Below, one piece after another: positions 7,748 through 25,369 of a DNA stretch of 56,731 bases (the stretch's first letter is position 1; the number at the start of each line of letters is the position of its first letter). The notes below the pieces were generated by a model, which was given only the letters and a program-made list of their open reading frames with translations, was not told the DNA's origin and ran no database searches. Position numbers and translations under genes: made by a program. Source of the stretch: Patescibacteria group bacterium (lineage in GTDB: Bacteria; Patescibacteriota; Patescibacteriia; 2-01-FULL-39-33); the NCBI GenBank assembly GCA_038065695.1, contig JBBTQN010000020.1:1-56731 (forward strand). The letters are read 5' to 3'.

Positions 7748-7784
7748 CCCCTCCTTTATTCAAGGAGGGGATTAAGGGGAGGTC
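7748..7784. repeat. CCCCTCC/GGAGGGG hairpin (half element)
   Basis: cccctcctttattcaaggagggg followed by attaaggggaggtc. This is the same head as the composite elements at 27229, 31259, 41018 and 55184. Confidence 0.6.
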
Positions 7785-8980
7785 TAAAATTTCCACGAGG
7801 CAGAAATGGAGCCGGTGAAAATGTCCGCTTCGTATTTGCCGGGAGCTCGCTTGCCCCAGCCGGGTTTGACTTCTCGGTCGCCCCAGCCGTAGGTGGCGCC
7901 GAAGTTGAAAGAGAAATTTTCTTTTTCATATTTTGCGCCCAAAGCCGCGCCCCAGCCACTGGTATCGGGAGTGAGCTGGCTTACGGTCGTGTCCGGAATG
8001 GCTTTGGTCATATAGCCAGTACCGGCGTTGACCGTCCAATAATCGTTTAACCGATAGCGCGCTCCGAGATGGATGCTCGCGTCGTCCCGCCAATCAAGAT
8101 TTTGTTTTTTCTTGAGTGGCAGGTCGTGGAAGCGAAGCGTCATCTCATTCACAGTGTTGGAGTAGCCCCACCAGTTGGCGTCTATGGCCAAAGTGAGGCG
8201 GTCGGTCGCTTGCCAAGCGATGCCGGCGCCGATTCGCGGCGGAAATGTGAACTCGCTGTCAAAGCCATCGCCGAAATTAAGCACTGTTGGCCCGATTTTA
8301 GTGAAGCCGATAAAATTGATTTTTGACTCGCTCATATAGGTGAGTCCGAGCGTCAATTTTTCTGTTGGCCGATACATTACACCGACAATGCCGCCGATTC
8401 CCCAGCCGTTGGCTTCGCTATCGGTCATGAGCGGAGTGAATTTATTTAAGATATCGTAAGGGGTTTTGTATTTGAATTGGCCCCAGCCGATATTTATTCC
8501 CGCGCCGACGCATAGCTTGTCGTTCAATTTCAGCGAGAGAGCTGGCGTGACATTGACGAGCCCGATCATCCCCTCGCTTTCCACGATTCCCGCTTTTAGG
8601 TCGCGACTGAATTTTCCGCCGAGTCCGTAGGGAGAGGTGATGCCAATTCCCCAATTCGCCCAGTCGTTAATCGGCGCGACAAATCCGAGGAGCGGCATCA
8701 GGTAAAAGACGCCATCGTCGGATTTTTGCGAGCCGCCTTTGGTGGTGATTTTAAATTTAGGCAAGACCAAGTCAACGCCGAAATCCGCGTAAGCCGAATC
8801 AAACCGCGACATCCCCGCCGGGTTGTAGTAGAAGAGCGACGCGTCATCCGCGATGGCGTTGTAGGCACCGCACATTGAGCCGGCATTGGGACCGAGCGAA
8901 TTATCAATCCGATTAACCCCGCCAGCCGTTGCCGGCAGGCAAAAAGCGCCAGCGATTAAAATTGAAAGAACGGTTCTCAT
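7784..8980 (-). CDS. FadL/OmpP1/TodX-like outer-membrane beta-barrel transporter
   Basis: Signal peptide MRTVLSILIAGAFCLPATAGG. It has an NPAGM motif near the N-terminus, alternating beta-strand patterning, many Gly and aromatic residues, and a C-terminal ...SASWKF with terminal Phe. Confidence 0.7.
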   Translation of the reverse strand: MRTVLSILIAGAFCLPATAGGVNRIDNSLGPNAGSMCGAYNAIADDASLFYYNPAGMSRFDSAYADFGVDLVLPKFKITTKGGSQKSDDGVFYLMPLLGFVAPINDWANWGIGITSPYGLGGKFSRDLKAGIVESEGMIGLVNVTPALSLKLNDKLCVGAGINIGWGQFKYKTPYDILNKFTPLMTDSEANGWGIGGIVGVMYRPTEKLTLGLTYMSESKINFIGFTKIGPTVLNFGDGFDSEFTFPPRIGAGIAWQATDRLTLAIDANWWGYSNTVNEMTLRFHDLPLKKKQNLDWRDDASIHLGARYRLNDYWTVNAGTGYMTKAIPDTTVSQLTPDTSGWGAALGAKYEKENFSFNFGATYGWGDREVKPGWGKRAPGKYEADIFTGSISASWKF

Positions 8981-11139: not shown

Positions 11140-12235
11140 CAAGTTCAATGATCAAGTGCAACACTTCGTGTATAATAGCATTTCAACTATTAAACATGGA
11201 GTTATATGGGAAAACAATATAAACAGTTGGATTTAAAAGAAAGAGAGCAACTTCATCTATTAATTTGGGACAAGCTATCGATTAGGCAAATAGCTAAAAT
11301 AATGGGTAGAAGCCCCTCGACAATCAGTCGAGAAATTGAGAGGAATACTCCACCCCTGGTCAGACGTTACACGCCCCATTTAGCCCAAGAAGCATACCAT
11401 GAACGCAAAGTGAAAGTCAGACAAAGGCCTCGTCTCAAAGATCCTTTGATTGTCGCTTACTTGATTGAGAAATTGAAACTGGATTGGTCGCCCGAGTTGA
11501 TTGCCGGCAAGTGGAGCAAGGATCATCCTAATCTGCCCATTAGCCATGAAGCGATTTACCAATACATCCACGCTTCAGCCAATCCGGGCGATGAGAATGA
11601 TTTGAGACCGTATCTTAGACGAAAACACAAGAGAAGAAAAAGAAAATATATACCTTTTAAAACCGTGAGAACCACGATTCCCGAGCGAATTGGCATCGAA
11701 ATGAGGCCACTGGCCGTGGCAGACAGAAGACAATATGGCCACTGGGAAGGCGACTCCGTAGAGTCCAGGCGAGAACAGAAAACTTGTTTAAGGACTTTAG
11801 TCGAAAGAAAATCAAGATATTTATGCGCAGTTAAAATTGAACGCAAGACAGCCGAATTAGCTTCGCAAGCGACGATTGATTTATTGGGTCGATATCCAAA
11901 ATCGATGCGACGCACCTTAACTCAAGATAATGGCACAGAGAATGCCAGCCACAAAATTATTACTCAAACCATCGACACCAAATGTTATTTTGCCAATCCA
12001 TACCGTTCCTATGAACGAGGCACTAATGAACAAACCAATGGATTAATCAGGCAGTATTTTCCAAAAGGAACTGATTTCAAACAAGCTTCAATCAAAGACA
12101 TTAGAGAGGCGGAAAGAAGGCTTAACGGCCGGCCAAGAAAAGTATTAGATTTTTACACCCCATCTGAAAAGTTTTATGAACTAATCACTAACCAAAATTT
12201 AGCGTTAGAAACTTGAATCCAGCATTTTATGATTA
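11140..12235 (+). mobile_element. IS30-family insertion sequence; the ends are not confidently defined
   Basis: Contains the IS30 transposase gene. I could align only weak terminal inverted similarity (left ..tgatcaagtgc.., right ..aaacttgaatc..). Confidence 0.45.
11206..12216 (+). CDS. IS30 family transposase
   Basis: N-terminal HTH (LSIRQIAKIMGRSPSTISREIERN). DDE region with HWEGDSV ... LTQDNGTENASH ... YERGTNEQTNGLIRQYFPKG. Confidence 0.9.
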   Translation: MGKQYKQLDLKEREQLHLLIWDKLSIRQIAKIMGRSPSTISREIERNTPPLVRRYTPHLAQEAYHERKVKVRQRPRLKDPLIVAYLIEKLKLDWSPELIAGKWSKDHPNLPISHEAIYQYIHASANPGDENDLRPYLRRKHKRRKRKYIPFKTVRTTIPERIGIEMRPLAVADRRQYGHWEGDSVESRREQKTCLRTLVERKSRYLCAVKIERKTAELASQATIDLLGRYPKSMRRTLTQDNGTENASHKIITQTIDTKCYFANPYRSYERGTNEQTNGLIRQYFPKGTDFKQASIKDIREAERRLNGRPRKVLDFYTPSEKFYELITNQNLALET

Positions 12236-12924: not shown

Positions 12925-13464
12925 ATGCGTACTAATAGAGAAACTGCTTTCAATACTCTTGATAGTAAAGGAAGCGCAAAAGCGGATCAGATGCACCAGC
13001 TCTTTTTGGAGTTGGGCGTTGATTTCGCGTCAGGGGTGCCTTGTGGCGTATTGAGGCACATCATCAAGAATTTTGAAGATGATGCTAAAATACTCCATAT
13101 CCTGGCAAATAGTGAGTCAGAAGCCGTAGGGTTGGTTGCAGGAGCGTATCTTGCCGGTAGAACGCCCGTTATCTATATGCAAAACTCGGGCCTTTTTGCG
13201 GCCTCAAATGACATTGCATCCCTCCTAATCCCGTACGAGATTCCCATATTTTTTGTGGTATCTTACCGTGGATGCGAGGGTGAGGATGCTGTTCAACATT
13301 TGACGACTGGAGGATCAACGGAAATGTTAATAAAATCATTCGGTTTGCCATTTATGGTTTTAGAACAGCATGATCTGGATAATCTTATTAGATCAATGTT
13401 TAAAGAAATGCACAAAAGTAGACTATCGACAATTCTACTACTAAAGCGAGGATGGCAAAAATGA
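12925..13464 (+). CDS. ThDP-dependent sulfopyruvate/phosphonopyruvate decarboxylase-like, alpha subunit
   Basis: About 180 aa. The N-terminal GVDFASGVPCGVL and overall layout are typical of the split ComD/Ppd N-terminal half. It overlaps the next gene by 13 nt. Confidence 0.7.
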   Translation: MRTNRETAFNTLDSKGSAKADQMHQLFLELGVDFASGVPCGVLRHIIKNFEDDAKILHILANSESEAVGLVAGAYLAGRTPVIYMQNSGLFAASNDIASLLIPYEIPIFFVVSYRGCEGEDAVQHLTTGGSTEMLIKSFGLPFMVLEQHDLDNLIRSMFKEMHKSRLSTILLLKRGWQK

Positions 13465-14018
13465 ACAGAAAAGAAGCGATCGAGACCATAATGGCCACGA
13501 TTGACCTAAAAGATGCCGTTGTTTCTACTACGGGATTAATCTCTCGAGAAATTTTCGAGAAATTTGATTCTAATAGAAACATTTACGTTCCTGGTTCAAT
13601 GGGTCTGGCGTCATCGATTGGGTTGGGTCTGGCCATTTCGTGTCCGGACAAGAGAATTGTTGTGATTGATGGGGATTCAAGCTTACTAATGAATCTTGGC
13701 ACTATTGTGACAATAGGCAATAAACAACCCAATAATCTGCTTCATATCGTCATTGATAATAGTGCTTATGGTTCTTGCAGTGAAGAAAAATCCATGTCCG
13801 ATTCCGCTCATTTTGACAAGCTGGCGTTAGATGTCGGTTATCAATATGTGCGGGTGGTTAGTAGTCAAAAAAAATTGAAACATGCTATACTGACGTTTAG
13901 TCGAGGGCCGGGATTCATTCTGGCGAAGATTAAACTGGGCGGACGTCGAGATTTTCGTCGTCCGCTGGATCTGGCCAATGTCAAAAACAGATTCATGCTA
14001 TTTTTGCATCAAACTTAG
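13452..14018 (+). CDS. ThDP-dependent sulfopyruvate/phosphonopyruvate decarboxylase-like, beta subunit
   Basis: ThDP-binding motif IVIDGDSSLLMNLGTIVTIG...LLHIVIDNSAYGS (GDG/S ... NN-type). Confidence 0.75.
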   Translation: MAKMNRKEAIETIMATIDLKDAVVSTTGLISREIFEKFDSNRNIYVPGSMGLASSIGLGLAISCPDKRIVVIDGDSSLLMNLGTIVTIGNKQPNNLLHIVIDNSAYGSCSEEKSMSDSAHFDKLALDVGYQYVRVVSSQKKLKHAILTFSRGPGFILAKIKLGGRRDFRRPLDLANVKNRFMLFLHQT

Positions 14019-14032
14019 AAAGGAGAAAGACC

Positions 14033-14875
14033 ATGATGTTTAAAGGAAAAAATATCTTCAATGCGTCTTTTGACGTATTTGCCAACAACTATCATTCCGT
14101 TCGACCCGGATATCCCGCCCTCCTATTCGAGGATGTTAGGGATCGGTGTGGAATTGATGTCAATTCGCGTCTATTGGAAATAGGCGCGGGTAGCGGAATC
14201 GCAACCATCGAGCTGGCCAAGCTCGGTTGCCATATTGTAGCTATTGAGCCCGGCGCTCATTTAGCCACAATAGCCAGAAAACAAACTAAGAGATTTAAAA
14301 ATGTCGAAATTGTTGAAGGGACATTCGAGAATTTTCAGACAGCCGACAAGTTCGATGCTATTCTGGCTTTCACGGCTTTCCATTGGCTTAGCGAGGGCGA
14401 CAAATTTCAGCAAGTTCTTGATTTACTCAATGATTCGGGCAGTCTTATTTTGGTCTGGAATAGCTTTTTCCAGAGCGACTCGCCGGCAACCATCGACGTA
14501 AACAGGGCTTACCGCGAATGCCTGCCCGAAGTCTACCCGGAAGAGTCTATCGTCGCTGACGTCAATAAGGGTGTTTTATCAAAATTGAATCGCAGAGAAC
14601 AGGAGGCGGTTGCTAACCCCCTCTTCTATCCGGTATTTTTGAGAAAATACCTTACTGCGTATAACTACGATGAACGGACGTATCCGAAACTTCTCAACAC
14701 TTTTCCAAAAGTCGTTGAAGTTGAAAACAAGAAACGCCTGGCATTCCTTGAACGCATCTCCGAGATTGTTAAACGGCATGGAAAGATTTCCGTACCGGTC
14801 ATGACAACCCTCATTGTCTGCCAAAAAAGAAACTACCTTCTTGAGGCAGTCGCAACCCATTCCAAAGGAGCGTGA
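14033..14875 (+). CDS. Class I SAM-dependent methyltransferase
   Basis: LLEIGAGSGIATIELAKLGCHIVAIEPG. Confidence 0.85.
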   Translation: MMFKGKNIFNASFDVFANNYHSVRPGYPALLFEDVRDRCGIDVNSRLLEIGAGSGIATIELAKLGCHIVAIEPGAHLATIARKQTKRFKNVEIVEGTFENFQTADKFDAILAFTAFHWLSEGDKFQQVLDLLNDSGSLILVWNSFFQSDSPATIDVNRAYRECLPEVYPEESIVADVNKGVLSKLNRREQEAVANPLFYPVFLRKYLTAYNYDERTYPKLLNTFPKVVEVENKKRLAFLERISEIVKRHGKISVPVMTTLIVCQKRNYLLEAVATHSKGA

Positions 14876-14878
14876 GCC

Positions 14879-15970
14879 ATGTTAGACATCAATGTGATCG
14901 CACGGCTTGCAGAAAAGTATGGCGCACCTCTGGAAGATGTTTTGTTTATTGCTCTCAATACGAACGGGATTAACCTCGATTGCGACTACAACAGAATGCG
15001 GACGGCCTTTCATTTGGCTGATAGCAATCTATTTAGTTATGCAAAACAGCGAGGCGAGCTAGATTACTACTTCGCCTTGCCGGTGAATCAGGCAAGTCCA
15101 TTCACTCTGGTCGACAAAACCCTGTTTTTGCAGGATACGGTCATTGGCCAGACGATTGGGCAAACGGAAGACATTTGCGACTCCCATTATCCTCGCAGGA
15201 AAGGGACGTCGCTGAATCTTAACCCAAACTCCCGGACATCCTGTCATGGTTGTCAGTTTTGCTACACCGCATACCAGGTTCCTTATGACAGAAAGAGACT
15301 GAAAACCGCCTCCGATCTAAAGGACTTCTTCGAAGATTGGATGATCAAGTTCGGTCTGACCGATTTGTCTCATCTGATCCAGGTTTCTGTCGTCACTGGT
15401 TGTTATGAGAGCAGTGACGAAATCTGCCAGTTTCTGCGTACATTGAAAGGCGTACTCTCGGAATATAAGTTTGCTGGCAAGATTTTTTATCTCGGTTCCC
15501 AGATTACAACCAAGGAACAACTGAGTATTCTGTCCAAGATCAAGCCCTTCGGCATCTGCCTGTCGCTTGAGACTTTCGAACGACGAGAACTGTTGCGGGA
15601 CAAAAAGAGACTGATCGGTCTCCAGGATGCCTGCGAATTAATGGATCTCGCCCAGGAGTTGGGATACGAAGTCAATTTTACCTATATTGTAGGTATGGAA
15701 TCATTGCGTGTGATGGAGTATCACTTCGGCGTTCTCAAGAATCACGTCAATAAGTTTCCCACCATCAATGCTCTGCAGATGCATAAGTATCACGAGGCGA
15801 CGTTAATGGCTCCGGACGCCCACCGTCTTGAGTATTACTTGGAGGCAAGGCAACTTCTCGAACGACTTTTCGCTGAGACAAGCATGAGGCCACTGGTATG
15901 GGAAGATTACCGTAGTTTATGGTTTCTAACATTCAACAAGGAGCCGCTCTATGGAATCCGTACTCCCTAA
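14879..15970 (+). CDS. Radical-SAM-like Fe-S enzyme with a non-canonical CX2CX2C cluster motif
   Basis: SRTSCHGCQFCYTAY replaces CX3CX2C. Downstream TIM-barrel-like elements VSVVTGCYES, GICLSLETFERRELL and NFTYIVGMESL resemble radical SAM core strands. Confidence 0.55.
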   Translation: MLDINVIARLAEKYGAPLEDVLFIALNTNGINLDCDYNRMRTAFHLADSNLFSYAKQRGELDYYFALPVNQASPFTLVDKTLFLQDTVIGQTIGQTEDICDSHYPRRKGTSLNLNPNSRTSCHGCQFCYTAYQVPYDRKRLKTASDLKDFFEDWMIKFGLTDLSHLIQVSVVTGCYESSDEICQFLRTLKGVLSEYKFAGKIFYLGSQITTKEQLSILSKIKPFGICLSLETFERRELLRDKKRLIGLQDACELMDLAQELGYEVNFTYIVGMESLRVMEYHFGVLKNHVNKFPTINALQMHKYHEATLMAPDAHRLEYYLEARQLLERLFAETSMRPLVWEDYRSLWFLTFNKEPLYGIRTP

Positions 15971-15984
15971 CCATCAAATATGGG

Positions 15985-16019
15985 TTGCACTGTCTCAGCG
16001 GATAGTGCAATCCTTTTTA
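15985..16019 (+). terminator. Intra-operon terminator or attenuator hairpin
   Basis: Stem ttgcact/agtgcaa, then tccttttta. Confidence 0.5.
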
Positions 16020-16046
16020 TTTACTCGCCTTAGAAAGGAGGTGTTC

Positions 16047-16874
16047 ATGTCTAATCAAATCGGATTCGAATACAGCAATGAAGGAGGAGAGACGGCATTT
16101 GAGACCTTTTTAAGATACAGCAATGAAAAAGATAAATCATCCGAAGTATTAGGGAGAATTCTCAATCGTTTGCTTGTTGAAGAAGGCATGACTGTCTTGG
16201 ATATTGGAAGCGGTAATGGCGAGTATCTGAGACTATCATTAATCAAAGCCAAGATTCCAAGGAAGACAATGCTCACTCTTCTTGAGCCGAGTAAGGATCT
16301 GGCAGAGCGATTGATAGTTGCGACAAAGCAATTTCCGGACGGTTCCATTGCCAAAGTAATACATTCAACACCTGAAGATTTTGTAACTGAAGATCGGTTT
16401 GATGTAATTTTGATCTCGCACGTTCCTCTCGCAAAAAATCAGGCAGATAAATTGCCGGCGATTTACCGGAAAATACTTGGGTTGTTAAAACCAAGAGGCT
16501 CTCTGATTATTGTATTGAGAGGAAAAGATGACATCCACGAGTTTAGAACCGTGTTCAAGTCTCAGCTTATGGGTATAAATTATCGATCCATGACGATTGA
16601 TGACGCAGTGGAAACACTCAGCTTTCTTGCTAAGAGTGTTCCATTGAATATATCTATGCACACGGCTAAGGCCGAATTGCACGTGCCGTATTGCGATAAT
16701 ATACGGGACGCAATCTCGATTGTCGAATTCTTCTTAAATAAGAGGTGGGATGAAATTCCGAACAATATTCGCGAAGCAATCATGAGTTATATTCGTCAAA
16801 AAAATGGCGTTTTAAAGCACATCGATTGCTTTGCTGTTGCAAGGAAAACTAATCCTTTTATGTCTGCTCCTTAA
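16047..16874 (+). CDS. Class I SAM-dependent methyltransferase
   Basis: Start moved to MSNQIG behind GAAAGGAGG. Motif VLDIGSGNGEYL. Confidence 0.8.
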   Translation: MSNQIGFEYSNEGGETAFETFLRYSNEKDKSSEVLGRILNRLLVEEGMTVLDIGSGNGEYLRLSLIKAKIPRKTMLTLLEPSKDLAERLIVATKQFPDGSIAKVIHSTPEDFVTEDRFDVILISHVPLAKNQADKLPAIYRKILGLLKPRGSLIIVLRGKDDIHEFRTVFKSQLMGINYRSMTIDDAVETLSFLAKSVPLNISMHTAKAELHVPYCDNIRDAISIVEFFLNKRWDEIPNNIREAIMSYIRQKNGVLKHIDCFAVARKTNPFMSAP

Positions 16875-17043: not shown

Positions 17044-17100
17044 AAGTATCCCCTCCTTGTTTTAAGGAGGGAAATTATAATTTTTAGGTACTGCTGGCAT

Positions 17101-17706
17101 TTAATTTTTCTGCGCCACTAACCTTACTACTCCGTGCTGATGTGGTTCTTCGTAGCCGACATGACCATGGTCATCTATTAATTTTTCTTCGTAAAGTATA
17201 ATCTCAAAATCAGAAAATAATCTTTTTAGTTCTCCTGGCTCAAAAAAGCAACGATGCTGGTTAGCTGGTATTTGGTATAAGGGATCGTCCTTGGTGAAGC
17301 CAGCAATAATTACAAAACTGTCTTTCTTTAAAGCCTCTTTCATTTTCTGAATGATGGCTAAAGCCTCATTTTTTTCTAAAAACTGCAAGGAATTAAAGGC
17401 ATTAATAATTTGATATCGATCCTTTTCAATATTAAAATCTTTAATATCCTCACAAAATAATTCAATCGCGTCTTTTAAATGATTATTTTGTTTAAGATAT
17501 TGTTTGATTTTGTTAATATTAATTTTCGATTGATCAACGGCCGTCACTTTAAAACCATATTTGGCCGCAAATAGAGAATCTCGGCCTTGGCCGCAGCCCA
17601 AATCCAAAAACCCGCCACTGGGTTTTACCCGCGGCCAAATTAACTGTAAAAGCTTATTGGGTTTTTGGCCCAAAACACCATTCTGATTTATTGAATTATT
17701 ATTCAT
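17101..17706 (-). CDS. Class I SAM-dependent methyltransferase (TehB-like size)
   Basis: FLDLGCGQGRDSLFAAKYGFKVTAVDQS. Confidence 0.85.
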   Translation of the reverse strand: MNNNSINQNGVLGQKPNKLLQLIWPRVKPSGGFLDLGCGQGRDSLFAAKYGFKVTAVDQSKININKIKQYLKQNNHLKDAIELFCEDIKDFNIEKDRYQIINAFNSLQFLEKNEALAIIQKMKEALKKDSFVIIAGFTKDDPLYQIPANQHRCFFEPGELKRLFSDFEIILYEEKLIDDHGHVGYEEPHQHGVVRLVAQKN

Positions 17707-17783
17707 AATTAAAATTTATTATATAACCCATATAATTTTTGAGAAAAAAGCGATAGCTTTCTCTGTTTGCTATCGCTTGAAAT

Positions 17784-18806
17784 TCAGCATCGCCAGCATT
17801 GCGGATCCTTATCAAAGAAATTGCCGGTAGTCCCTGCCGCAACGGCATGACAACCCCGGCAATAATTTAATAGGTCGCAATCTTTGCAGCCGGCTAGATT
17901 TTCAATTCGGCGATATTGTTCCATCGCCGGTGAAAGAAAAATTTCTCTGAAACTTTGTTGATCAGTGTTGCCGACCAAGCTGTCAAATCGCCGGCAGGCA
18001 TAAACAGTCCCATTCGGCAAAACTGTCATATGCTTAATGGCGCAATTACAGCCATCAATGACAATACCTTTCTCGACACAAAGACTATAAAGACCATTTT
18101 CATAGAGAAAAGCAATCCAGAGATGGTCTTTTAGGGAAAAAATCGTTCCCTTGTCGCTTAACTCGCAGTAAACCTGCCACATATCAGTGAGAAATTGGCG
18201 GTATAGCGGTGGCGGCATATTATATTTAGAATCTTCGCGTTGATTAGGACAATAGCGAGCAAAAGCAAAACTATTTACCCGATGTTCAACGCAAAGTTTG
18301 GCCACTGCCGGAATTTCTTGATAATTAAGAAGTGATACCGTCGCCATAATCATAGTCCGAATGTTGGCTTCAAGTAAAAGCGGCAGTGCTTCTAAAGTGG
18401 CTTTAAAGGAACCCGACTTACGTAAAGAGTCGTGGGTCGCCTTTAAGCCATCCAAGGACATTTGATAGCTGGCGCAACCAAGTAGCTTGAGCTGTTTTGC
18501 CACTTCAGAGCTAAGATGGAACGGGTTACCAAGAATAGTAAATGGTACTTTCTTACTTTGGATATATTCCAACAGTTCCCAGATGTGAGAATAAAGAAGT
18601 GGGTCGCCGCCAGTGATTGAGAAGTACGGCGAAACCGACGTTTCTTGGCAAAAACTAAGGAAATCATCCACAATATTTTGACATTGTTGAATATTGGGTT
18701 GGGTGTGCAAACTTTCATTTACAAATTTCCTCCAAATATAGCAATGTTGGCATCGCTGATCGCATTCATTGGTTATATGCCATTGCAGTCCAAAAATTTT
18801 AGGCAT
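17784..18806 (-). CDS. Radical SAM/SPASM-domain peptide maturase
   Basis: CX3CX2C in NECDQRCQHCY. C-terminal Cys cluster CKDCDLLNYCRGC plus CNCAIK...ACRRF and QCWRC. The start is probably the second ATG (MPKIF), 6 nt after AGGAG. Confidence 0.9.
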   Translation of the reverse strand: MPKIFGLQWHITNECDQRCQHCYIWRKFVNESLHTQPNIQQCQNIVDDFLSFCQETSVSPYFSITGGDPLLYSHIWELLEYIQSKKVPFTILGNPFHLSSEVAKQLKLLGCASYQMSLDGLKATHDSLRKSGSFKATLEALPLLLEANIRTMIMATVSLLNYQEIPAVAKLCVEHRVNSFAFARYCPNQREDSKYNMPPPLYRQFLTDMWQVYCELSDKGTIFSLKDHLWIAFLYENGLYSLCVEKGIVIDGCNCAIKHMTVLPNGTVYACRRFDSLVGNTDQQSFREIFLSPAMEQYRRIENLAGCKDCDLLNYCRGCHAVAAGTTGNFFDKDPQCWRC

Positions 18807-18833
18807 CACCATCTCCTTTCTCAGAATAGTGGT

Positions 18834-18861
18834 GGGGGAATATAGTTTTTAATATTCCCCC
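18834..18861 (-). promoter_or_regulatory. Perfect 10-bp stem-loop between the precursor and maturase genes
   Basis: gggggaatat / atattccccc with an 8-nt loop and no T-run. This resembles the processing or attenuation hairpins seen between RiPP precursor and enzyme genes. Confidence 0.55.
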
Positions 18862-18880
18862 GCTCTCGATCGTTTTTTGA

Positions 18881-19087
18881 TTAGTCGCCATTACAACTGC
18901 CACATTCACCATTGCAACCGCCGCCACAATTGCAGGAGCCGGCGCCGCAGGAATTGGCGCCAGCGACATCTCGTGCGAAAGCGCCTCTAGTGGAAGCGTT
19001 TGCTTGACGTAAAACAGCTTGAGCACTATGGCAACCAGTCCAAGCAACTTGTTGATTCCAGAAGTTAAAAACATTTAGATCTGGCAT
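18881..19087 (-). CDS. Candidate RiPP precursor (68 aa) with a Cys/Gly-rich C-terminal core
   Basis: Start moved to the ATG 7 nt after GGAGG. Translation: MPDLNVFNFWNQQVAWTGCHSAQAVLRQANASTRGAFARDVAGANSCGAGSCNCGGGCNGECGSCNGD. There are 6 Cys in the last 23 residues. Confidence 0.7.
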   Translation of the reverse strand: MPDLNVFNFWNQQVAWTGCHSAQAVLRQANASTRGAFARDVAGANSCGAGSCNCGGGCNGECGSCNGD

Positions 19088-19170
19088 ATTCTCACCTCCC
19101 TTCCGTTTCATTGATAGACCATCGTTTGTTTTAAGGTGCAGTTTATAACAGACTCCAAAGAACTATTTGA

Positions 19171-19199
19171 TTTTTATCAAATAACCGATTTAATGTCAA
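19171..19199 (-). promoter_or_regulatory. Candidate promoter for the precursor/maturase operon
   Basis: Read on the minus strand: TTGACA, 17 nt spacer, TAAAAA. Confidence 0.5.
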
Positions 19200-19214
19200 A
19201 TGCTTGTCAAATGT

Positions 19215-19243
19215 TTGACAGATTTTATCTTTTAATATAAAAT
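19215..19243 (+). promoter_or_regulatory. Candidate promoter for 19320..20315
   Basis: TTGACA, 17 nt spacer, TAAAAT. The -35 forms an inverted repeat tgtcaaa/tttgaca with the neighbouring sequence. Confidence 0.55.
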
Positions 19244-19319
19244 GCATTGTTTAAGTGGTATACTTAAAAATGTAGTTCTTTCAAAACCTAAGTTTTAACC
19301 AAGAAAGGAGGGGTTAATA

Positions 19320-20315
19320 ATGAACGGTCAGGCTGCTTCAATAATAGTGGAAATTGCCACCATTCCGGAACTGCCGGAAGTTGAGACCGGTACTGTATCT
19401 ATAACATTGCCGATTAAGTTGGCTAAGTTTGAAAGGCGGCGTTGGCCGTATGTTCTGACCATACCGATCTCTTGGCTTCTGACCCTTTGGGTTATTATTA
19501 AGAAGTCAATCTGTCGGTGGCAGGACAAACCCGAACCGAACATCAACACCTTCTGGTTTGATGGATTGGGTTTGTCTAACCGTGTGATCAAGGAAGGCGC
19601 TACATCCTGGAAAGCTCTGGATATCATCTACAATCATCCGTTCGGTCAAAGGAAAAGTATCGGCGGATTCGTTGATGATTTCTGGATTGGGATGATCAAT
19701 GCCCAAGCAGTTAGAAATCGTCTCAAGCTCGTTAAGCAAGAAATCAGGCGAGCAATCTTGCGGTTTAGCAACCACCAAGAAATTCGATTGCTTTCACTGG
19801 CTGCCGGCTCATCTCAAGGCATCATTGAGGTAATGGCCGAGTTGAAAACCAAGGGAATTCGAGTCCGCGCGTTACTATTGGATATTGACCAAACCGCTTT
19901 GGATTATGCTCAAGTTATGGCTAAACGCCATGGAGTTGACGATCAGATCGAGACGGTCAAAACAAGCATTGCGCAAGTGGCGCGAGTCTCAAGGGATTTT
20001 AGACCGCAAATCATAGAAATGCTTGGTTTGCTCGATTACATCCCACATGACAAAGCCATCCGGCTGGTCAGAAAAATTTGGGAATCCCTTGATTCTAAAG
20101 GAATTTTTTTGACCTGCAACATTAACCACAATATAGAGATGTACTTTCTGAAGTGGGTGATTAACTGGTCGATGATTTATCGTACTCCAGCTGAATTGGC
20201 GGAAATAATCACCAAATCTGGATTCAGCGATTACCGGCTCATCTATGAGCCGCTCAAGATCCATGGTTTGGTAATTGCCCAAAAGGAACAATACATATTA
20301 GTGGCTCAAGCCTGA
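19320..20315 (+). CDS. Membrane-anchored SAM-dependent methyltransferase-like protein
   Basis: One TM segment (WPYVLTIPISWLLTLWVII). Rossmann-like segment IRLLSLAAGSSQGIIEVMAEL...ALLLDIDQTALDYA. Confidence 0.65.
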   Translation: MNGQAASIIVEIATIPELPEVETGTVSITLPIKLAKFERRRWPYVLTIPISWLLTLWVIIKKSICRWQDKPEPNINTFWFDGLGLSNRVIKEGATSWKALDIIYNHPFGQRKSIGGFVDDFWIGMINAQAVRNRLKLVKQEIRRAILRFSNHQEIRLLSLAAGSSQGIIEVMAELKTKGIRVRALLLDIDQTALDYAQVMAKRHGVDDQIETVKTSIAQVARVSRDFRPQIIEMLGLLDYIPHDKAIRLVRKIWESLDSKGIFLTCNINHNIEMYFLKWVINWSMIYRTPAELAEIITKSGFSDYRLIYEPLKIHGLVIAQKEQYILVAQA

Positions 20316-20380: not shown

Positions 20381-22009
20381 ATGAATATTTATATAATATC
20401 CACTCTGATAAATTTTTCTGCTAGTTTGTTTTTAGGTTTTTTTATTTTTTTTAGTAATAAAAAAGAAAGGGTTAATGTCTCTTTCTCACTTTTTTCTTTT
20501 AATGTAGCTTTTTGGAGTTTGGGTTATTATTTTTGGCAGATTTCTAATAATTCGTACTGGGCCTTATTTTGGTCTCGTTTTTTAATGGCAGGAGCTATTT
20601 TTATACCCTTAACCTATCTCTACTTTGTTTATTGTTTTACTGGTTTATTAAATAGAAGAAAGAAATTTTTAATTTTTAGTTTTTTTATTTTATTTATATT
20701 TTTTATTTTAAATTTTTCCTCTCTTTTTGTTAATAGAGTAGAACCATTATTAAATTTTAAATTCTGGCCGATAGCTGGGCCCGCTTTTTCCACTTTTTTA
20801 TTTATTTGGTTTTTTTATGTTATATACTCAACATATATACTTTATAAAAAATATATTGTAGCTGAGGGTATTTTTCGAATCCAAATAATATATATACTGG
20901 TTGGTATGGTTGTGGGTTTTATTGGCGGCTCAACAAATTATTTTTTATGGTATAAAATTCCCATTCCTCCGATAGCTAATATTTTAGTAGCTTTTTATGT
21001 TGTGGCGGTGGCCTATGCCATAATTAAACATCATTTAATGAACATTAAAGTTATTGCTACAGAATTATTTGCTGCTTTATTAATTTTGATAACTTTTATA
21101 CAAATATTTCAAACCTCCATTTATTCTATTGTGATTAGAATGGTGGTTTTTGTAATAACTACCACTTTTGCATTTTTATTAATCAGATCCGTTCTTTTAG
21201 AAGTCCATCGGCGCGAGGAAATGGAGCGCTTGGCTAAAGAGCTCCAGAAGACCACCAAGAAATTAGCCGCGGCGAATAAAGAACTCCAAAGGTTGGACGA
21301 GGCCAAGTCCGAATTCCTTTCCATCGCCAGCCACCAGCTCCGTACCCCCTTAACCGTCATTAAAGGTTATATCTCAATGATCCAGGAAGGCAGTTTCGGC
21401 CAAGTGCCGAAGCTCATCGGACAGAGCTTGGAAAAAGTGTACATTTCCACCGAACGGCTCATCGGCTTGGTGGAAAGTTTGCTTAATATTTCCCGCATTG
21501 AATCCGGGCGATTGGAGTTTGACATCAAGCCGTTTGATTTGGCCGAGACGGTCAAAGTGATCGTGGATGACTTTCAGTCAAAAGCAAAAGTCAAAAATTT
21601 AAAGCTTGAATTCCATAGCGAGCCGAATTTGCCGTCGGTTTCCGCCGACCCGCAGAAAATCAAGGAAGTCATTTCCAACCTGATTGATAATTCCATCAAA
21701 TACACCACCAAGGGTAGCATCATGGTCGGTCTGCATCAAGAAAGCCAATCAGTGGTGTTCGCTTGCCAAGACACGGGCATCGGCATTTTGCCGGAGGATT
21801 TGCCGCGGCTGTTCAATAAATTCACGCGCGGCAAAGGGATGATGCAGGTCTATACCGAAGGCACGGGACTGGGGCTTTATTTCGCCCGCATGGTTTTGGA
21901 AAACATGGGCGGCCGCATCTGGGCCGAGAGCGCCGGCAAAGGCAAGGGAAGCAAGTTTGCGTTTTCTCTGCCACTATCAGATAAATCGAAGGCCAGAAAG
22001 ATAAAATAG
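20381..22009 (+). CDS. Sensor histidine kinase with a multi-TM N-terminal sensor
   Basis: About 7 TM segments, a coiled linker, H-box SIASHQLRTPLT, and N/G boxes (NLIDNSIKYT, GTGLGLYFARMVLENMGGRIW). Confidence 0.9.
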   Translation: MNIYIISTLINFSASLFLGFFIFFSNKKERVNVSFSLFSFNVAFWSLGYYFWQISNNSYWALFWSRFLMAGAIFIPLTYLYFVYCFTGLLNRRKKFLIFSFFILFIFFILNFSSLFVNRVEPLLNFKFWPIAGPAFSTFLFIWFFYVIYSTYILYKKYIVAEGIFRIQIIYILVGMVVGFIGGSTNYFLWYKIPIPPIANILVAFYVVAVAYAIIKHHLMNIKVIATELFAALLILITFIQIFQTSIYSIVIRMVVFVITTTFAFLLIRSVLLEVHRREEMERLAKELQKTTKKLAAANKELQRLDEAKSEFLSIASHQLRTPLTVIKGYISMIQEGSFGQVPKLIGQSLEKVYISTERLIGLVESLLNISRIESGRLEFDIKPFDLAETVKVIVDDFQSKAKVKNLKLEFHSEPNLPSVSADPQKIKEVISNLIDNSIKYTTKGSIMVGLHQESQSVVFACQDTGIGILPEDLPRLFNKFTRGKGMMQVYTEGTGLGLYFARMVLENMGGRIWAESAGKGKGSKFAFSLPLSDKSKARKIK

Positions 22010-22119: not shown

Positions 22120-23052
22120 ATGACCACGCAACAAAAACTTAAAACAATTCAAAAAATGCTGGGATTGACGCAGACCGAGTTGGCCAAGCGGTTTGGCGTG
22201 TCTTTTGTCGCCTTTAATAATTGGTGGACAGGCAAATCAGTCCCCCGGTCCAAAAAACATCTTATCATAGAGGATTTATTTCTGGAGGTTACCGGCCAAA
22301 AGATAATCCCAGCAGATCAGTTGGCCAGCAAAGAACGGGCTTTGCGCCAGAAATCATCCGAGCATAAAAATATTTTGCAAAAAATATTGGATAATCCGGA
22401 CATCCGCGACCAGTTCATCTTGAAACTTACCTATAACAGTAATCGCATTGAGGGTAGTACGCTTACCGAGCCGGACACGGCCGCCATTATTTTTGACAAT
22501 GTCGCTCTGCCCGACAAGAGCTTGACTGAACAGCTTGAAGCGAAAAATCATCAGGCGGCACTCTTGTATTTATTTGATTATATCGCTAAAAAAGGGATGA
22601 TTGACGAGGATTTGGTTTTAAAATTGCATGGTATTTTAATGAATGGCATCCGGTCGGACGCGGGCGTGTACCGCCGTCACGCGGTGAGGATCATCGGCGT
22701 CAATCTGCCTACGGCGAATTACATGCGAGTGCCCGATTTGATGCCGGCGGTCGTGAAGAGCGCGGCAAAAAGAAACAAAGATATAATCAGTCAATCGGCT
22801 GAAGTCCACAGCAAGTTTGAACAAATTCATCCATTTTCCGACGGCAACGGCCGTGTCGGCCGGTTGCTCATGAGCGCGATGCTGTTGAAGGCGAATTTTG
22901 CCCCCGCGATCATCCGGCAGGAGAAAAAACAGCTCTATTATATCTATCTTTTTAAAGCGCAAACCGGAAATGATTTTAGCCAATTGGAATATTTTATCTA
23001 TGAAGCAGTTATGGATGGATTTAGGATTTTGGAGCGGAAAGATATGGAATGA
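22120..23052 (+). CDS. Fic family protein with an N-terminal XRE-type HTH
   Basis: HTH LGLTQTELAKRFGVSFVAFNNW. Fic motif HPFSDGNGRVGRLL. Confidence 0.9.
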   Translation: MTTQQKLKTIQKMLGLTQTELAKRFGVSFVAFNNWWTGKSVPRSKKHLIIEDLFLEVTGQKIIPADQLASKERALRQKSSEHKNILQKILDNPDIRDQFILKLTYNSNRIEGSTLTEPDTAAIIFDNVALPDKSLTEQLEAKNHQAALLYLFDYIAKKGMIDEDLVLKLHGILMNGIRSDAGVYRRHAVRIIGVNLPTANYMRVPDLMPAVVKSAAKRNKDIISQSAEVHSKFEQIHPFSDGNGRVGRLLMSAMLLKANFAPAIIRQEKKQLYYIYLFKAQTGNDFSQLEYFIYEAVMDGFRILERKDME

Positions 23053-23053
23053 T

Positions 23054-23175
23054 GTTTGGAAAATATGGGCGGCCGCATCTGGGCCGAGAGCGCCGGCAAA
23101 GGCAAGGGAAGCAAGTTTGCGTTCAGTTTGCCTTTGGCGGATAAGACGAAGGCGAAGAAGATAAAAACGCAATAA
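23054..23175 (+). pseudogene. Orphan copy B of the histidine kinase 3' end
   Basis: Reads (L)ENMGGRIWAESAGKGKGSKFAFSLPLADKTKAKKIKTQ*. A run of about 59 bases is identical to 21905 onward in the intact kinase. Confidence 0.8.
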
Positions 23176-23187
23176 AAAAGATAATAA

Positions 23188-24192
23188 ATGTCAAAAGAAA
23201 TAAAAAATAAGCCGATTGGTGAAATAGTCATTTATCAGGACAGAGGCAAAAATATTAAAATTGAAACAAGATTTGAAAACGAGACCGTTTGGCTCAATCA
23301 AGAGCAGATTTCTTCATTATTTGACGCTGAAAGGAGTGTCATTACCAAGCATCTTGGAAATATTTTTAAGTCTGGCGAGCTGGATGAAAAAAGCAATGTG
23401 CAAAAAATGCACTTTGCAAATTCTGATAAATTGGTTAAATTTTACAATTTAGACGCGATAATTTCCGTAGGCTACCGCGTAAATTCCCGTCGCGCCACCC
23501 AGTTTCGGATTTGGGCGACAAATGTCGTTAAAAATCATATTATAAGGGGCTATACAATAAACAAAAGCAGAATTTCCGACTTGAAAGAGAGGCAATTGTC
23601 GGAATTGGAATCAGCCGTCTCTCTGATTAAGAAAACAATAGAAACCAAAAGGTTATCGGGCGCTGAAGAACGGGGGTTATTGCGAGTGATTACAGATTAT
23701 GCCAATTCTTGGGTGTTATTGCAGAAATATGACAAAAATGAATTAAAGTTGCCCGGAAAAGTTAAAATCGCTAAATTCAAACTCACTTGCCAAGAGACGG
23801 AGAATGCCATTTTTGAGTTTAAAGACAAGCTTATTTCCAAAAGGATAGCGTCCGATTTGTTCGGAGTCGAAAGAGACAAGTCGCTTTCGGGTATTATTGG
23901 AAATTTATACCAATCCTTTGGCGGCAAAGAACTTTATTTCAGTATTGAGGAGAAGGCGGCGCATTTGTTGTATTTTATCATCAAAGATCATCCGTTTATT
24001 GACGGCAATAAACGGATCGGTTCATTTTTGTTTATTTTATTTTTGGCGCGTAATAATTATCTTCTAAAAAAGAACGGGGAAAAGAAAATAAATGACAATG
24101 CTTTGGTCGCTTTGGCGCTACTGATTGCCGAAAGCGACGCGAAACAGAAGGAGGTCATCATAAAATTAATAATGAATTTTATTAACGGTTAG
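23188..24192 (+). CDS. RhuM-family N-terminal domain fused to a Doc/Fic-type domain
   Basis: The N-terminal ...SVGYRVNSRRATQFRIWATNV... is typical of RhuM-like proteins. C-terminal Doc-type motif HPFIDGNKRIG. Confidence 0.85.
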   Translation: MSKEIKNKPIGEIVIYQDRGKNIKIETRFENETVWLNQEQISSLFDAERSVITKHLGNIFKSGELDEKSNVQKMHFANSDKLVKFYNLDAIISVGYRVNSRRATQFRIWATNVVKNHIIRGYTINKSRISDLKERQLSELESAVSLIKKTIETKRLSGAEERGLLRVITDYANSWVLLQKYDKNELKLPGKVKIAKFKLTCQETENAIFEFKDKLISKRIASDLFGVERDKSLSGIIGNLYQSFGGKELYFSIEEKAAHLLYFIIKDHPFIDGNKRIGSFLFILFLARNNYLLKKNGEKKINDNALVALALLIAESDAKQKEVIIKLIMNFING

Positions 24193-24195
24193 CTC

Positions 24196-24349
24196 GCTTT
24201 ATTTCGCCCGCATGGTTTTGGAAAATATGGGCGGCCGCATCTGGGCCGAGAGCGCCGGCAAGGGCAAGGGGAGTAAGTTCGCTTTTAGTTTGCCGCTCGC
24301 GGACAAATCTCAATCGAAGAAAATAAAAACTTCTGCCCCCCAGCGATAG
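24196..24349 (+). pseudogene. Orphan copy C of the histidine kinase 3' end (longest and most diverged)
   Basis: Reads LYFARMVLENMGGRIWAESAGKGKGSKFAFSLPLADKSQSKKIKTSAPQR*. Within the conserved part, its differences from the intact copy are mostly synonymous third-position changes. Confidence 0.8.
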
Positions 24350-24369: not shown

Positions 24370-24416
24370 TTGACTATTTACCATAATTATGGTAATATTA
24401 TACCATAACTATGGTA
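24370..24416 (+). promoter_or_regulatory. Promoter with two palindromic operators upstream of the MNT/HEPN pair
   Basis: TTGACT, 17 nt spacer, TAATAT. Palindromes TACCATAATTATGGTA (24379..24394) and TACCATAACTATGGTA (24401..24416). Confidence 0.55.
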
Positions 24417-24971
24417 ATTATAAATTTTATGAATTTTAAAAGTGAGACAGAAAATAAGATATTGAATTATTTTTTTATCAACTCCAAGGCGAGGCATTAT
24501 ATCAATGAACTGGCGAGAATTTTGGTTCTTGACCCCAAAAATACCCATCGCAAATTGGTGGAATTGGAGAAACGGGGAATTTTAAAAAGCGAATTTCTGG
24601 GCCGGCAGAGGTATTTTTTTCTGGATTCTGACAATCAGCTGACCAAAAAGTATCGCTCGATTTTTTTTCAAACCGTCGGGTTGGAAGCGCGATTAAAGAA
24701 AATAGCGGCCATGAATAAAAAAATAAAATCGGCTTATATTTTCGGCTCATACGCGATTGACAAAATGGATGCTTCAAGCGACTTGGATCTATTGGTTATA
24801 GGGAGCCATTCTTCAATTGAGCTTCATAAAGCGTTTAATAAAATCCAGCAAGAAATCGGACGGGAAATAAACGTGATTGACTTCAATGAATCGGAATTCA
24901 GACTTAGAAAGAAAAGAGGGGATGGTTTTTTAAAGAATATTTTTTCTCAAAAAACAATCAAGATAAAATGA
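24411..24971 (+). CDS. Nucleotidyltransferase (MNT-like) with an N-terminal winged-helix domain; the start may be at 24429
   Basis: Minimal NTase motif GSYAIDKMDASSDLDLLVIG. The stop overlaps the next start (ATGA). Confidence 0.75.
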   Translation: MVIINFMNFKSETENKILNYFFINSKARHYINELARILVLDPKNTHRKLVELEKRGILKSEFLGRQRYFFLDSDNQLTKKYRSIFFQTVGLEARLKKIAAMNKKIKSAYIFGSYAIDKMDASSDLDLLVIGSHSSIELHKAFNKIQQEIGREINVIDFNESEFRLRKKRGDGFLKNIFSQKTIKIK

Positions 24972-25369
24972 TAATTTTTGAAGACGATTATTTCCGGTTG
25001 ACGAATTTTGATGCTAAGCAGATTGGAGAATATATTGACTCGGCAGAGAGGGATTTATCAATCGCCAAAGAGTCGGATATTCCCGAAGTGGTTTTTAGAT
25101 TTGCTTATGACGCGATGATAAAATTGGGTATTATTTTAATCGCTAAGCAGGGATATCGAGTGAGAAGCGCGCCGGGACATCATATCAAAATTATAGAAAA
25201 AATGAGTTTAATTGTGGGAGACGAAGATATTGGAATAATAGGCAATAAAATAAGACAAAAAAGGAATTTGGATTTATACAGTGGCAAATTGTCTTTCTCG
25301 GAAAAAGAGAGTAAAGAATATTTTAAATTTATTGAGAGTATTTTTAAGCAGGCGCGTAATTTATTTTAA
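24968..25369 (+). CDS. HEPN-domain-like protein, partner of the MNT
   Basis: 133 aa, helical, translationally coupled to the NTase. It has an RQKRNLDLY segment like the R..N..Y region of HEPN partners. This is a family call from memory. Confidence 0.55.
   Translation: MIIFEDDYFRLTNFDAKQIGEYIDSAERDLSIAKESDIPEVVFRFAYDAMIKLGIILIAKQGYRVRSAPGHHIKIIEKMSLIVGDEDIGIIGNKIRQKRNLDLYSGKLSFSEKESKEYFKFIESIFKQARNLF

Follow-up and report, generated by a model that had tools for sequence, protein, structure and literature searches.

The ACGX system is catalogued as a cassette for a peptide that is made on the ribosome and modified after translation (RiPP), with a radical S-adenosylmethionine (SAM)/SPASM maturase (NCBIfam TIGR04340) and a cysteine-rich precursor (TIGR04341). 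TIGR04340, whose model type is 'hypothetical equivalog', is a computationally defined family with thousands of members, including proteins from gut Bacteroidales, Clostridia and methanogens. In the literature searched, we found no experimental characterisation of the ACGX system, no mention of it together with radical SAM and nothing relevant on radical SAM RiPPs of Patescibacteria, the candidate phyla radiation (CPR). A member of this maturase family is encoded on the minus strand of contig JBBTQN010000020.1 from a Patescibacteria group bacterium, a stretch of 56,731 nucleotides (nt) that was analysed at its full length and is called the window below. The maturase gene is preceded by a gene for a 68-residue precursor peptide and followed by a gene for a TehB-like methyltransferase. 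This cassette appears to be an undescribed variant of the ACGX system: its core is invariant, has no repeats and fails TIGR04341, the TehB-like enzyme is an obligate partner, and the hairpin is conserved. An initial annotation, made from the sequence alone, had listed the peptide, the hairpin, the maturase, the methyltransferases and the divergent promoter-like sites, and all of these are present where it had placed them; it had missed the TIGR04340 membership, a second hairpin and a promoter-like site just before the methyltransferase gene.

The maturase (342 residues, or 340 if translation starts at Met3) scored 413.8 bits, with a cutoff of 400, against the TIGR04340 model 'radical SAM/SPASM domain protein, ACGX system', and 336 of the 342 residues were covered. 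The second-best model was SbtM (TIGR04082), with 228.5 bits against a cutoff of 350 and a match confined to model positions 195-515, and the remaining NCBIfam families scored 107 bits or less. At an E-value of 1e-20 or lower, 2883 database clusters matched the maturase, and many homologues from Patescibacteria and Clostridia were already labelled 'ACGX system' by NCBI and JGI. The Pfam domains of the maturase were Radical_SAM (residues 13-173) and SPASM (residues 255-313), and nothing else. The CX3CX2C motif at Cys17/21/24 and the seven SPASM cysteines (255, 273, 309, 312, 318, 321 and 339) were all invariant in a 53-sequence alignment. As the CX3CX2C motif begins at residue 17 and the C-terminus lies three residues past Cys339, the enzyme has no room for a RiPP recognition element (RRE), in line with the initial annotation. 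The window locus thereby shares with the ACGX system the TIGR04340 match, the size, the domain layout and the lack of an RRE, as well as a Cys-rich precursor gene immediately 5' of the maturase gene on the same strand.

Among characterised enzyme families, the closest is that of the SbtM/SbtA thio(seleno)oxazole RiPP system (summarised in PMC11002830), the similarity to SbtM extending across the whole radical SAM and SPASM region; in both systems the substrate would be Cys (or selenocysteine) in a small peptide. The window maturase differs in lacking the N-terminal domain of about 190 residues of SbtM, and its precursor has no selenocysteine codon and many Cys sites instead of one. An AlphaFold2 model of the maturase (pLDDT 92.4) found its best Protein Data Bank (PDB) match in the anaerobic sulfatase-maturating enzyme (anSME) anSMEcpe, which matched over its full length and is likewise without an RRE, followed by SkfB, SuiB, TigE, CteB, ChlB and PqqE. 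The predicted fold gave TM-scores of about 0.70-0.76 to anSME (PDB 4K36-4K39), a SPASM enzyme of about 370 residues that abstracts hydrogen at the C-beta of Cys or Ser. The identity, however, was 18-19%, the score against TIGR03942 was 66.5 bits (cutoff 349), and anSME acts on sulfatases encoded elsewhere, whereas the window maturase adjoins a small peptide gene. The SCIFF, ranthipeptide and sactipeptide systems (CteB, PapB, SkfB) have in common with the window a small Cys-rich precursor, a radical SAM/SPASM maturase and a precursor-first operon, but their maturases are about 450 residues long and carry an N-terminal RRE (PqqD-like), which the window maturase lacks. The window maturase scored 64.9 bits against PapB (NF047865, cutoff 340), 55.5 against StsB (cutoff 625) and 43.3 against SkfB (cutoff 300), the SCIFF maturase model was not among its best 25 families, and the precursor matched no SCIFF or related precursor model. 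Assignments to the SCIFF, ranthipeptide, sactipeptide and metallothionein families were rejected because the family models fail to match; the initial annotation had already seen in the tail a likeness to SCIFF or ranthipeptide cores in composition only.

The precursor gene carries a strong Shine-Dalgarno sequence, GGGAGGTG, before its ATG and encodes the 68-residue product MPDLNVFNFWNQQVAWTGCHSAQAVLRQANASTRGAFARDVAGANSCGAGSCNCGGGCNGECGSCNGD. An alternative ATG upstream, at 19111, would give a 76-residue precursor; as the homologues begin at the second ATG of the window, the 68-residue form is favoured. The tail, CGAGSCNCGGGCNGECGSCNGD, contains 6 Cys in 22 residues, with the core CGAGSCNCGGGCNGEC followed by GSCNGD. 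Fourteen homologues aligned with the precursor over a leader motif, N[YF]W...HSAQAVL, and an invariant core, CGxGSCNCGGGCNGxC; 14 of the 16 invariant columns were within the core, and the residue before the last core Cys was Glu in more than 90% of the homologue sequences (CGxGSCNCGGGCNGEC). When 1.84 billion cluster representatives were searched with a profile, only 23 peptides matched, 47-90 residues long and all of the same architecture. Pairwise comparison of the core among 12 distinct DNA versions gave 561 synonymous versus 54 non-synonymous codon differences, which shows that the precursor is translated and that its core is under strong purifying selection. The reading frame is uninterrupted and ends with TAA, without an in-frame UGA for selenocysteine, and the whole window gave no Rfam match, SECIS elements included. 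No second copy of the precursor was found in the window. A separate Cys-rich stretch, EACDNGASNGVCSATCSSSCTVNSC, is present in a plus-strand frame at about 55438, near the end of the window, and adjoins no maturase gene.

The precursor departs from the ACGX system in its core. Neither the 68-residue form, the 76-residue form nor the core alone matched TIGR04341 at E = 10, whereas classic ACGX-repeat peptides from related loci, used as positive controls, scored 31-58 bits (cutoff 28). A comparison of the precursor with all NCBIfam and Pfam models gave no match even at E = 10. Classic loci have cores made of SACGSACGAGDK or TACGSD repeats, whereas the core in the window is one continuous, near-invariant stretch without tandem A-C-G-X repeats. 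In the leader, a wider motif, W...[KRH][ST]AQx[YVF][LM], is shared with the ACGX system. A hidden Markov model (HMM) built from the CPR-type leaders scored Clostridial CxC-type leaders at 11-25 bits, compared with a maximum of 6.6 bits among 1000 shuffled decoys.

We scanned 185,579 species genomes, which contained at least 572 relatives of the maturase, and read 80 loci. A Cys-rich small open reading frame (ORF) adjoined the maturase gene in about 74 of these 80 loci, on the same strand and ending 0-170 nt upstream of it (68 nt in the window). The peptide is conserved and directly upstream of the maturase in relatives. The linkage of the two is strict: they stay adjacent in different phyla, although the genes around them differ. 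Every complete locus with this core type (L001-L004, L006-L012, L042 and L086-L092) had the order peptide, maturase, TehB-like methyltransferase. The relatives bear out the proposal of a cassette in which a precursor and a maturase have a methyltransferase as partner and a hairpin is conserved between the precursor and maturase genes. Around the cassette, no protease, exporter/transporter or immunity gene was conserved beyond the three genes, and a HisKA_7TM kinase was nearby in only 3 of 20 loci.

This linkage also bears on the suggestion that the peptide is an unmodified, metallothionein-like metal binder, with the radical SAM enzyme and the methyltransferase acting on unrelated substrates. 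The Cys/Gly-rich tail with its CxC and CxxxC spacing is reminiscent of metallothioneins, but the peptide matched nothing in Pfam or NCBIfam, metallothionein models included, and it has a conserved leader of 45 residues that appears to be shared with further precursors in this maturase family. Because the peptide is so strictly linked to the maturase, this plain reading, which the initial annotation had kept as an alternative, is very unlikely indeed.

A neighbour-joining tree of the maturases, on which the clade counts are based, separated two clades with dense-Cys cores from the classic ACGX-repeat clade. The TehB-like methyltransferase gene was present in 18 of 20 loci of the CPR/Saccharibacteria clade and in 7 of 10 loci of the Clostridial CxC clade, which has cores such as DCSCNCSSGCSACSSSC (25 of 30 loci combined); genes for HxlR, zinc alcohol dehydrogenase (Zn-ADH)/quinone oxidoreductase, nitroreductase and PNPOx-ferredoxin were found in none of them. 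The classic clade (loci L017-L085), with members from Bacteroidales, Lachnospiraceae, Methanobrevibacter and others, lacked the methyltransferase in all 56 loci and instead carried HxlR in 42, Zn-ADH/quinone oxidoreductase in 28, nitroreductase in 22 and a PNPOx-ferredoxin fusion in 13 of the 56. Dense CxC/CxxC cores in the precursor are thus a constant companion of the methyltransferase, which occurs with no other maturases. One enzyme family is found in two testable functional contexts, methyltransferase-linked dense-Cys cores and HxlR/oxidoreductase-linked ACGX repeats. The neighbours in the classic clade are of a kind associated with electrophile or redox stress, and this may be a hint of what the whole maturase family does.

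Several loci varied around this common plan. A thioredoxin-reductase-like Pyr_redox_2 gene lay directly 3' of the methyltransferase gene in L086-L089 (about 6632-7591 in L086), an extra UbiE-like methyltransferase gene was present on the opposite strand between the maturase and TehB-like methyltransferase genes in L009-L012, L042 and L090-L092, and L004 and L012 had a second radical SAM paralogue near the cassette. Cassettes with the CPR-type core were also found on contigs labelled Micrarchaeota (L010) and Gammaproteobacteria (L006, L012 and L042); these DPANN- or Gammaproteobacteria-binned cases are due either to wrong binning or to the horizontal transfer of the cassette among ultra-small symbionts.

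The product of the third gene passed Pfam TehB (73.7 versus 20.4) but scored below the TehB equivalog cutoffs (89 versus 303, 73.6 versus 218 and 70.5 versus 219.5 bits), so it is TehB-like in fold and family and not an equivalog. The nearest solved structures were those of TehB proteins, whose alignments began at about residue 26 and ended at residue 178-180 of the 201 residues. The gap between the maturase and methyltransferase genes was 7-72 nt in relatives.

The spacer between the precursor and maturase genes contains a perfect hairpin without a U-run. The 91-nt stretch with this hairpin had a folding z-score of -3.97, which was equalled by 1 of 200 shuffles, and a strong hairpin was present in the same spacer in 14 of 14 distinct loci with the same core type. 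The stems vary in sequence among the 14 loci, and several of them precede U-runs. Hairpins of this kind are found in RiPP operons, those of lantibiotics among them, where they maintain an excess of precursor transcript by partial termination or by stabilising the mRNA. Scans of the entire window for Rfam families and tRNAs gave no match, indicating that no riboswitch or known RNA element is present at the hairpins.

Taken together, we consider it probable (roughly 0.6) that the locus is a minimal three-gene RiPP-type cassette of precursor, radical SAM/SPASM maturase and TehB-like methyltransferase, forming a distinct sub-type of the ACGX system, and that the peptide is modified as follows. The RRE-less maturase would recognise the conserved leader motif W...[HR][ST]AQx[VY][LM] and apply 5'-deoxyadenosyl radical chemistry to the core Cys, most likely starting with hydrogen abstraction at the Cys C-beta. 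Abstraction of C-beta hydrogen from Cys or Ser of a peptide substrate is established for anSME, and Lewis et al. reportedly observed abstraction at the Cys C-beta by SbtM in 2021. The outcome we prefer would be oxidative conversion of core Cys to 5-thiooxazole-type units, with thioether cross-links as the main alternative. SbtM converts Cys to thiooxazole with a net loss of four hydrogens (PMC11002830), and 5-thiooxazoles are readily S-alkylated, serve as metal ligands and occur in metallophores (bioRxiv 2025.11.18.689057). The methyltransferase would then act on the peptide so modified; for a TehB/TPMT-type enzyme, it is plausible that a thiol or heterocyclic thiol is S-methylated. The spacer hairpin would hold the precursor mRNA in excess over the enzyme mRNA. 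The product might be, for example, a metal- or metalloid-binding or redox-active peptide, and the modified product may have a metal-binding role.

Several points weigh against this proposal. The literature searched shows no chemistry for any TIGR04340 member, and as the SbtM score is below its cutoff and the N-terminal region of about 190 residues of SbtM is absent, the transfer of SbtM chemistry to the window maturase is a guess. The HMM of CPR-type leaders gave classic ACGX leaders a marginal 4-8 bits. TehB-type enzymes methylate chalcogens in small molecules, and the cassette methyltransferase may not act on the peptide. In the window, a terminator-like hairpin and a promoter-like site of its own set the methyltransferase gene apart from the maturase gene, so that it may be transcribed separately in this genome. 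Finally, the invariant Asn and the Glu in CNGEC form an NxxC/CxxE pattern that fits thioether acceptor sites equally well.

This last pattern makes thioether cross-linking the main rival. The maturase would install intramolecular thioethers of the sacti-, ranthi- or NxxC-type, joining Cys sulfur to Asn, Glu, Asp or Gly at an alpha, beta or gamma carbon, the methyltransferase would cap a carboxylate or a leftover thiol, and the product would be a compact polycyclic peptide. The full SPASM domain with its seven invariant auxiliary-cluster Cys is consistent with this chemistry, the thioether-forming SkfB and CteB are among the close structural neighbours, and Asn and Glu of CNGEC, invariant or nearly so, provide NxxC and CxxE spacing. 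The classic ACGX repeats contain CxxxD/E (ACGAGD), presumably the spacing of PapB-type ranthipeptides. Cys-Asn beta-thioethers made by radical SAM enzymes are known (PMC11002830). On the other hand, the models of the thioether maturases PapB, StsB and SkfB scored far below SbtM, and the Clostridial methyltransferase-linked cores are almost without Asp, Glu or Asn acceptors. We regard thioether formation as possible, though on the unlikely side.

The cassette could also be a detoxification module and not a natural-product pathway. The peptide, with or without modification, would carry or buffer a metalloid, a metal or an electrophile by its many thiols, and it would be this bound small species (Se, Te, As or a reactive electrophile), not the peptide, that the TehB-like enzyme methylates. 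The likeness of the methyltransferase to TehB extends over most of the protein, the core is invariant, no exporter or protease is conserved, the sister clade has the stress-type neighbours HxlR, Zn-ADH/quinone oxidoreductase and nitroreductase, and the thioredoxin-reductase-like gene follows the cassette in L086-L089, all of which would suit such a module. However, the TehB equivalog scores are far below cutoff, and the tight spacing of the maturase and methyltransferase genes in relatives is explained no less well by a peptide substrate common to both enzymes. The His-Arg pair of TehB, which we take to be catalytic, appears as His-Gly in the cassette methyltransferase (C-terminal, beyond the HMMER alignment), a further point against detoxification. 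This explanation seems improbable.

The near-invariant core and the absence of a conserved protease, exporter or immunity gene point to a product with a housekeeping role and away from an antibiotic that diversifies. The genomes of CPR bacteria are very small and encode few biosynthetic pathways; the cassette is common in ultra-small groundwater bacteria and maintained across several CPR lineages. This retention, with the 16 residues of the core essentially frozen, suggests that the product has a physiological role, in metal handling, redox or detoxification, and is not a variable antibiotic. A more far-reaching claim, which we regard as unlikely, is that the cassette represents a new RiPP class of ultra-small symbiotic prokaryotes (Patescibacteria/CPR, possibly DPANN), in which an RRE-less radical SAM enzyme turns several clustered Cys into units of the thiooxazole type or into others derived from Cys, S-methylation of these units by a TehB/TPMT-like enzyme follows, and the product is an invariant, non-secreted metal/metalloid-binding or redox housekeeping peptide. 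If true, S-methylated thiooxazoles from a radical SAM and TehB-like pair would be new chemistry. The sub-type offers a compact set of substrate, enzyme and tailoring enzyme for solving the chemistry of the family.

The features of the cassette and its surroundings are listed in Table 1. Promoter-consensus matches in the region numbered 15, compared with 9.6 +/- 2.9 in shuffles, a modest excess. The divergent promoter region also contains three TTGACA-type half-sites, the two TTTGACA copies being spaced 11 nt apart, and a perfect palindrome that overlaps the -10 element of the precursor promoter-like site; these may be operators for a regulator, or chance in AT-rich DNA. The hairpin at the convergent junction beyond the methyltransferase gene is probably the transcript end of the cassette.

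Table 1. Positions of the cassette genes, putative regulatory elements and neighbouring features in the window.
Feature	Position	Strand	Evidence or description
Divergent promoter-like site, precursor gene	19199-19170	minus	TTGACA-18-AAAAAT, 10/12 matches; overlaps two palindromes
Divergent promoter-like site facing Methyltransf_20 gene	19215-19243	plus	TTGACA-17-TAAAAT, 11/12 matches
Half-site TGTCAAA	19220-19214		TTGACA-type
Half-sites TTTGACA	19211-19205; 19200-19194		TTGACA-type
Palindrome	19182-19165		ATTTGAT-AAAA-ATCAAAT, perfect
Precursor peptide, 68 residues	18881-19087	minus	ORF, homologue alignment and codon comparison
Precursor-maturase spacer hairpin	18834-18861	minus	perfect 10-bp stem GGGGGAATAT / ATATTCCCCC, 8-nt loop, no U-run
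Radical SAM/SPASM maturase, 342 residues	17784-18812	minus	TIGR04340 and Pfam Radical_SAM, SPASM
Terminator-like element, maturase-methyltransferase spacer	17744-17778	minus	10-bp hairpin AAGCGAUAGC / GCUAUCGCUU, then U-run
Promoter-like site just 5' of methyltransferase gene	17745-17718	minus	TTCTCA-16-TATAAT, 10/12 matches
TehB-like class I SAM-dependent methyltransferase, 201 residues	17101-17706	minus	conserved third cassette gene
Hairpin at convergent junction beyond methyltransferase gene	17049-17073	not assigned	10 bp, CCCCUCCUUG / CAAGGAGGGG on plus strand
Methyltransf_20 gene	19320-20315	plus	E 1.2e-11; hydrophobic N-terminal segment
ThDP operon	12925-16874	plus	five genes described in the text
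HisKA_7TM histidine-kinase gene	20381-22009		3' end is the 133-nt repeat
Fic/DOC gene	22120-23052		followed by the 133-nt repeat
Fic/DOC gene (RhuM plus Fic)	23188-24192		followed by the 133-nt repeat
133-nt direct repeat, three copies	21874-22006; 23034-23166; 24196-24328		75-83% identity, spacing about 1160 nt
Nucleotidyltransferase/HEPN-like pair	24411-25369		after the Fic genes

The initial annotation had combined the cassette with the divergently transcribed, membrane-anchored methyltransferase gene and the plus-strand thiamine diphosphate (ThDP) operon into a biosynthetic block of about 7.5 kb with four methyltransferases. The divergent gene matched Methyltransf_20. The operon encodes split sulfopyruvate/phosphonopyruvate-decarboxylase-like ThDP subunits of 179 and 188 residues, a 280-residue and a 307-residue methyltransferase, and a 363-residue protein with a weak Radical_SAM match, an unusual CHGCQFC (CxxCxxC) motif and no NCBIfam match; no phosphoenolpyruvate mutase was identified among the neighbouring ORFs scanned. 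That the cassette belongs to such an extended pathway would fit the adjoining genes and overlapping promoter regions in this genome, and the sub-branch with the UbiE-like gene does have a different second methyltransferase inside the cassette. However, neither the Methyltransf_20 gene nor any member of the ThDP operon had a homologue near the cassette in the related loci (0 of 85), so that the block is an adjacency in this genome and not a conserved unit, and only a same-strain contig (L093, from the 0.1-um fraction of Hainich groundwater) had both in common with the window. The extra methyltransferase of the sub-branch is unrelated to the Methyltransf_20 gene product (BLASTP E = 1.3). An IS30-like transposase gene, Fic genes and toxin-antitoxin-like genes lie nearby, which indicates that the region is variable. 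The extended block was therefore rejected as a candidate, and the pathway it implies is highly improbable.

Downstream of the Methyltransf_20 gene, a 133-nt direct repeat occurs three times, at the 3' end of the HisKA_7TM histidine-kinase gene and again after each of the two Fic/DOC genes. This triple repeat looks like a cassette-style tandem insertion of Fic genes, which are followed by the nucleotidyltransferase/HEPN-like pair. On the other side of the cassette, a FadL/Toluene_X outer-membrane-protein gene lies in a local GC peak (0.525), with the IS30-like transposase gene (HTH_38 plus rve) nearby (7784-8980 and 11206-12216). An outer-membrane-protein gene is unexpected for a CPR bacterium; it may have been acquired horizontally, the host may be a different one, or the assembly may be chimeric. 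The closest relatives of the cassette suggest that the contig is from a CPR bacterium.

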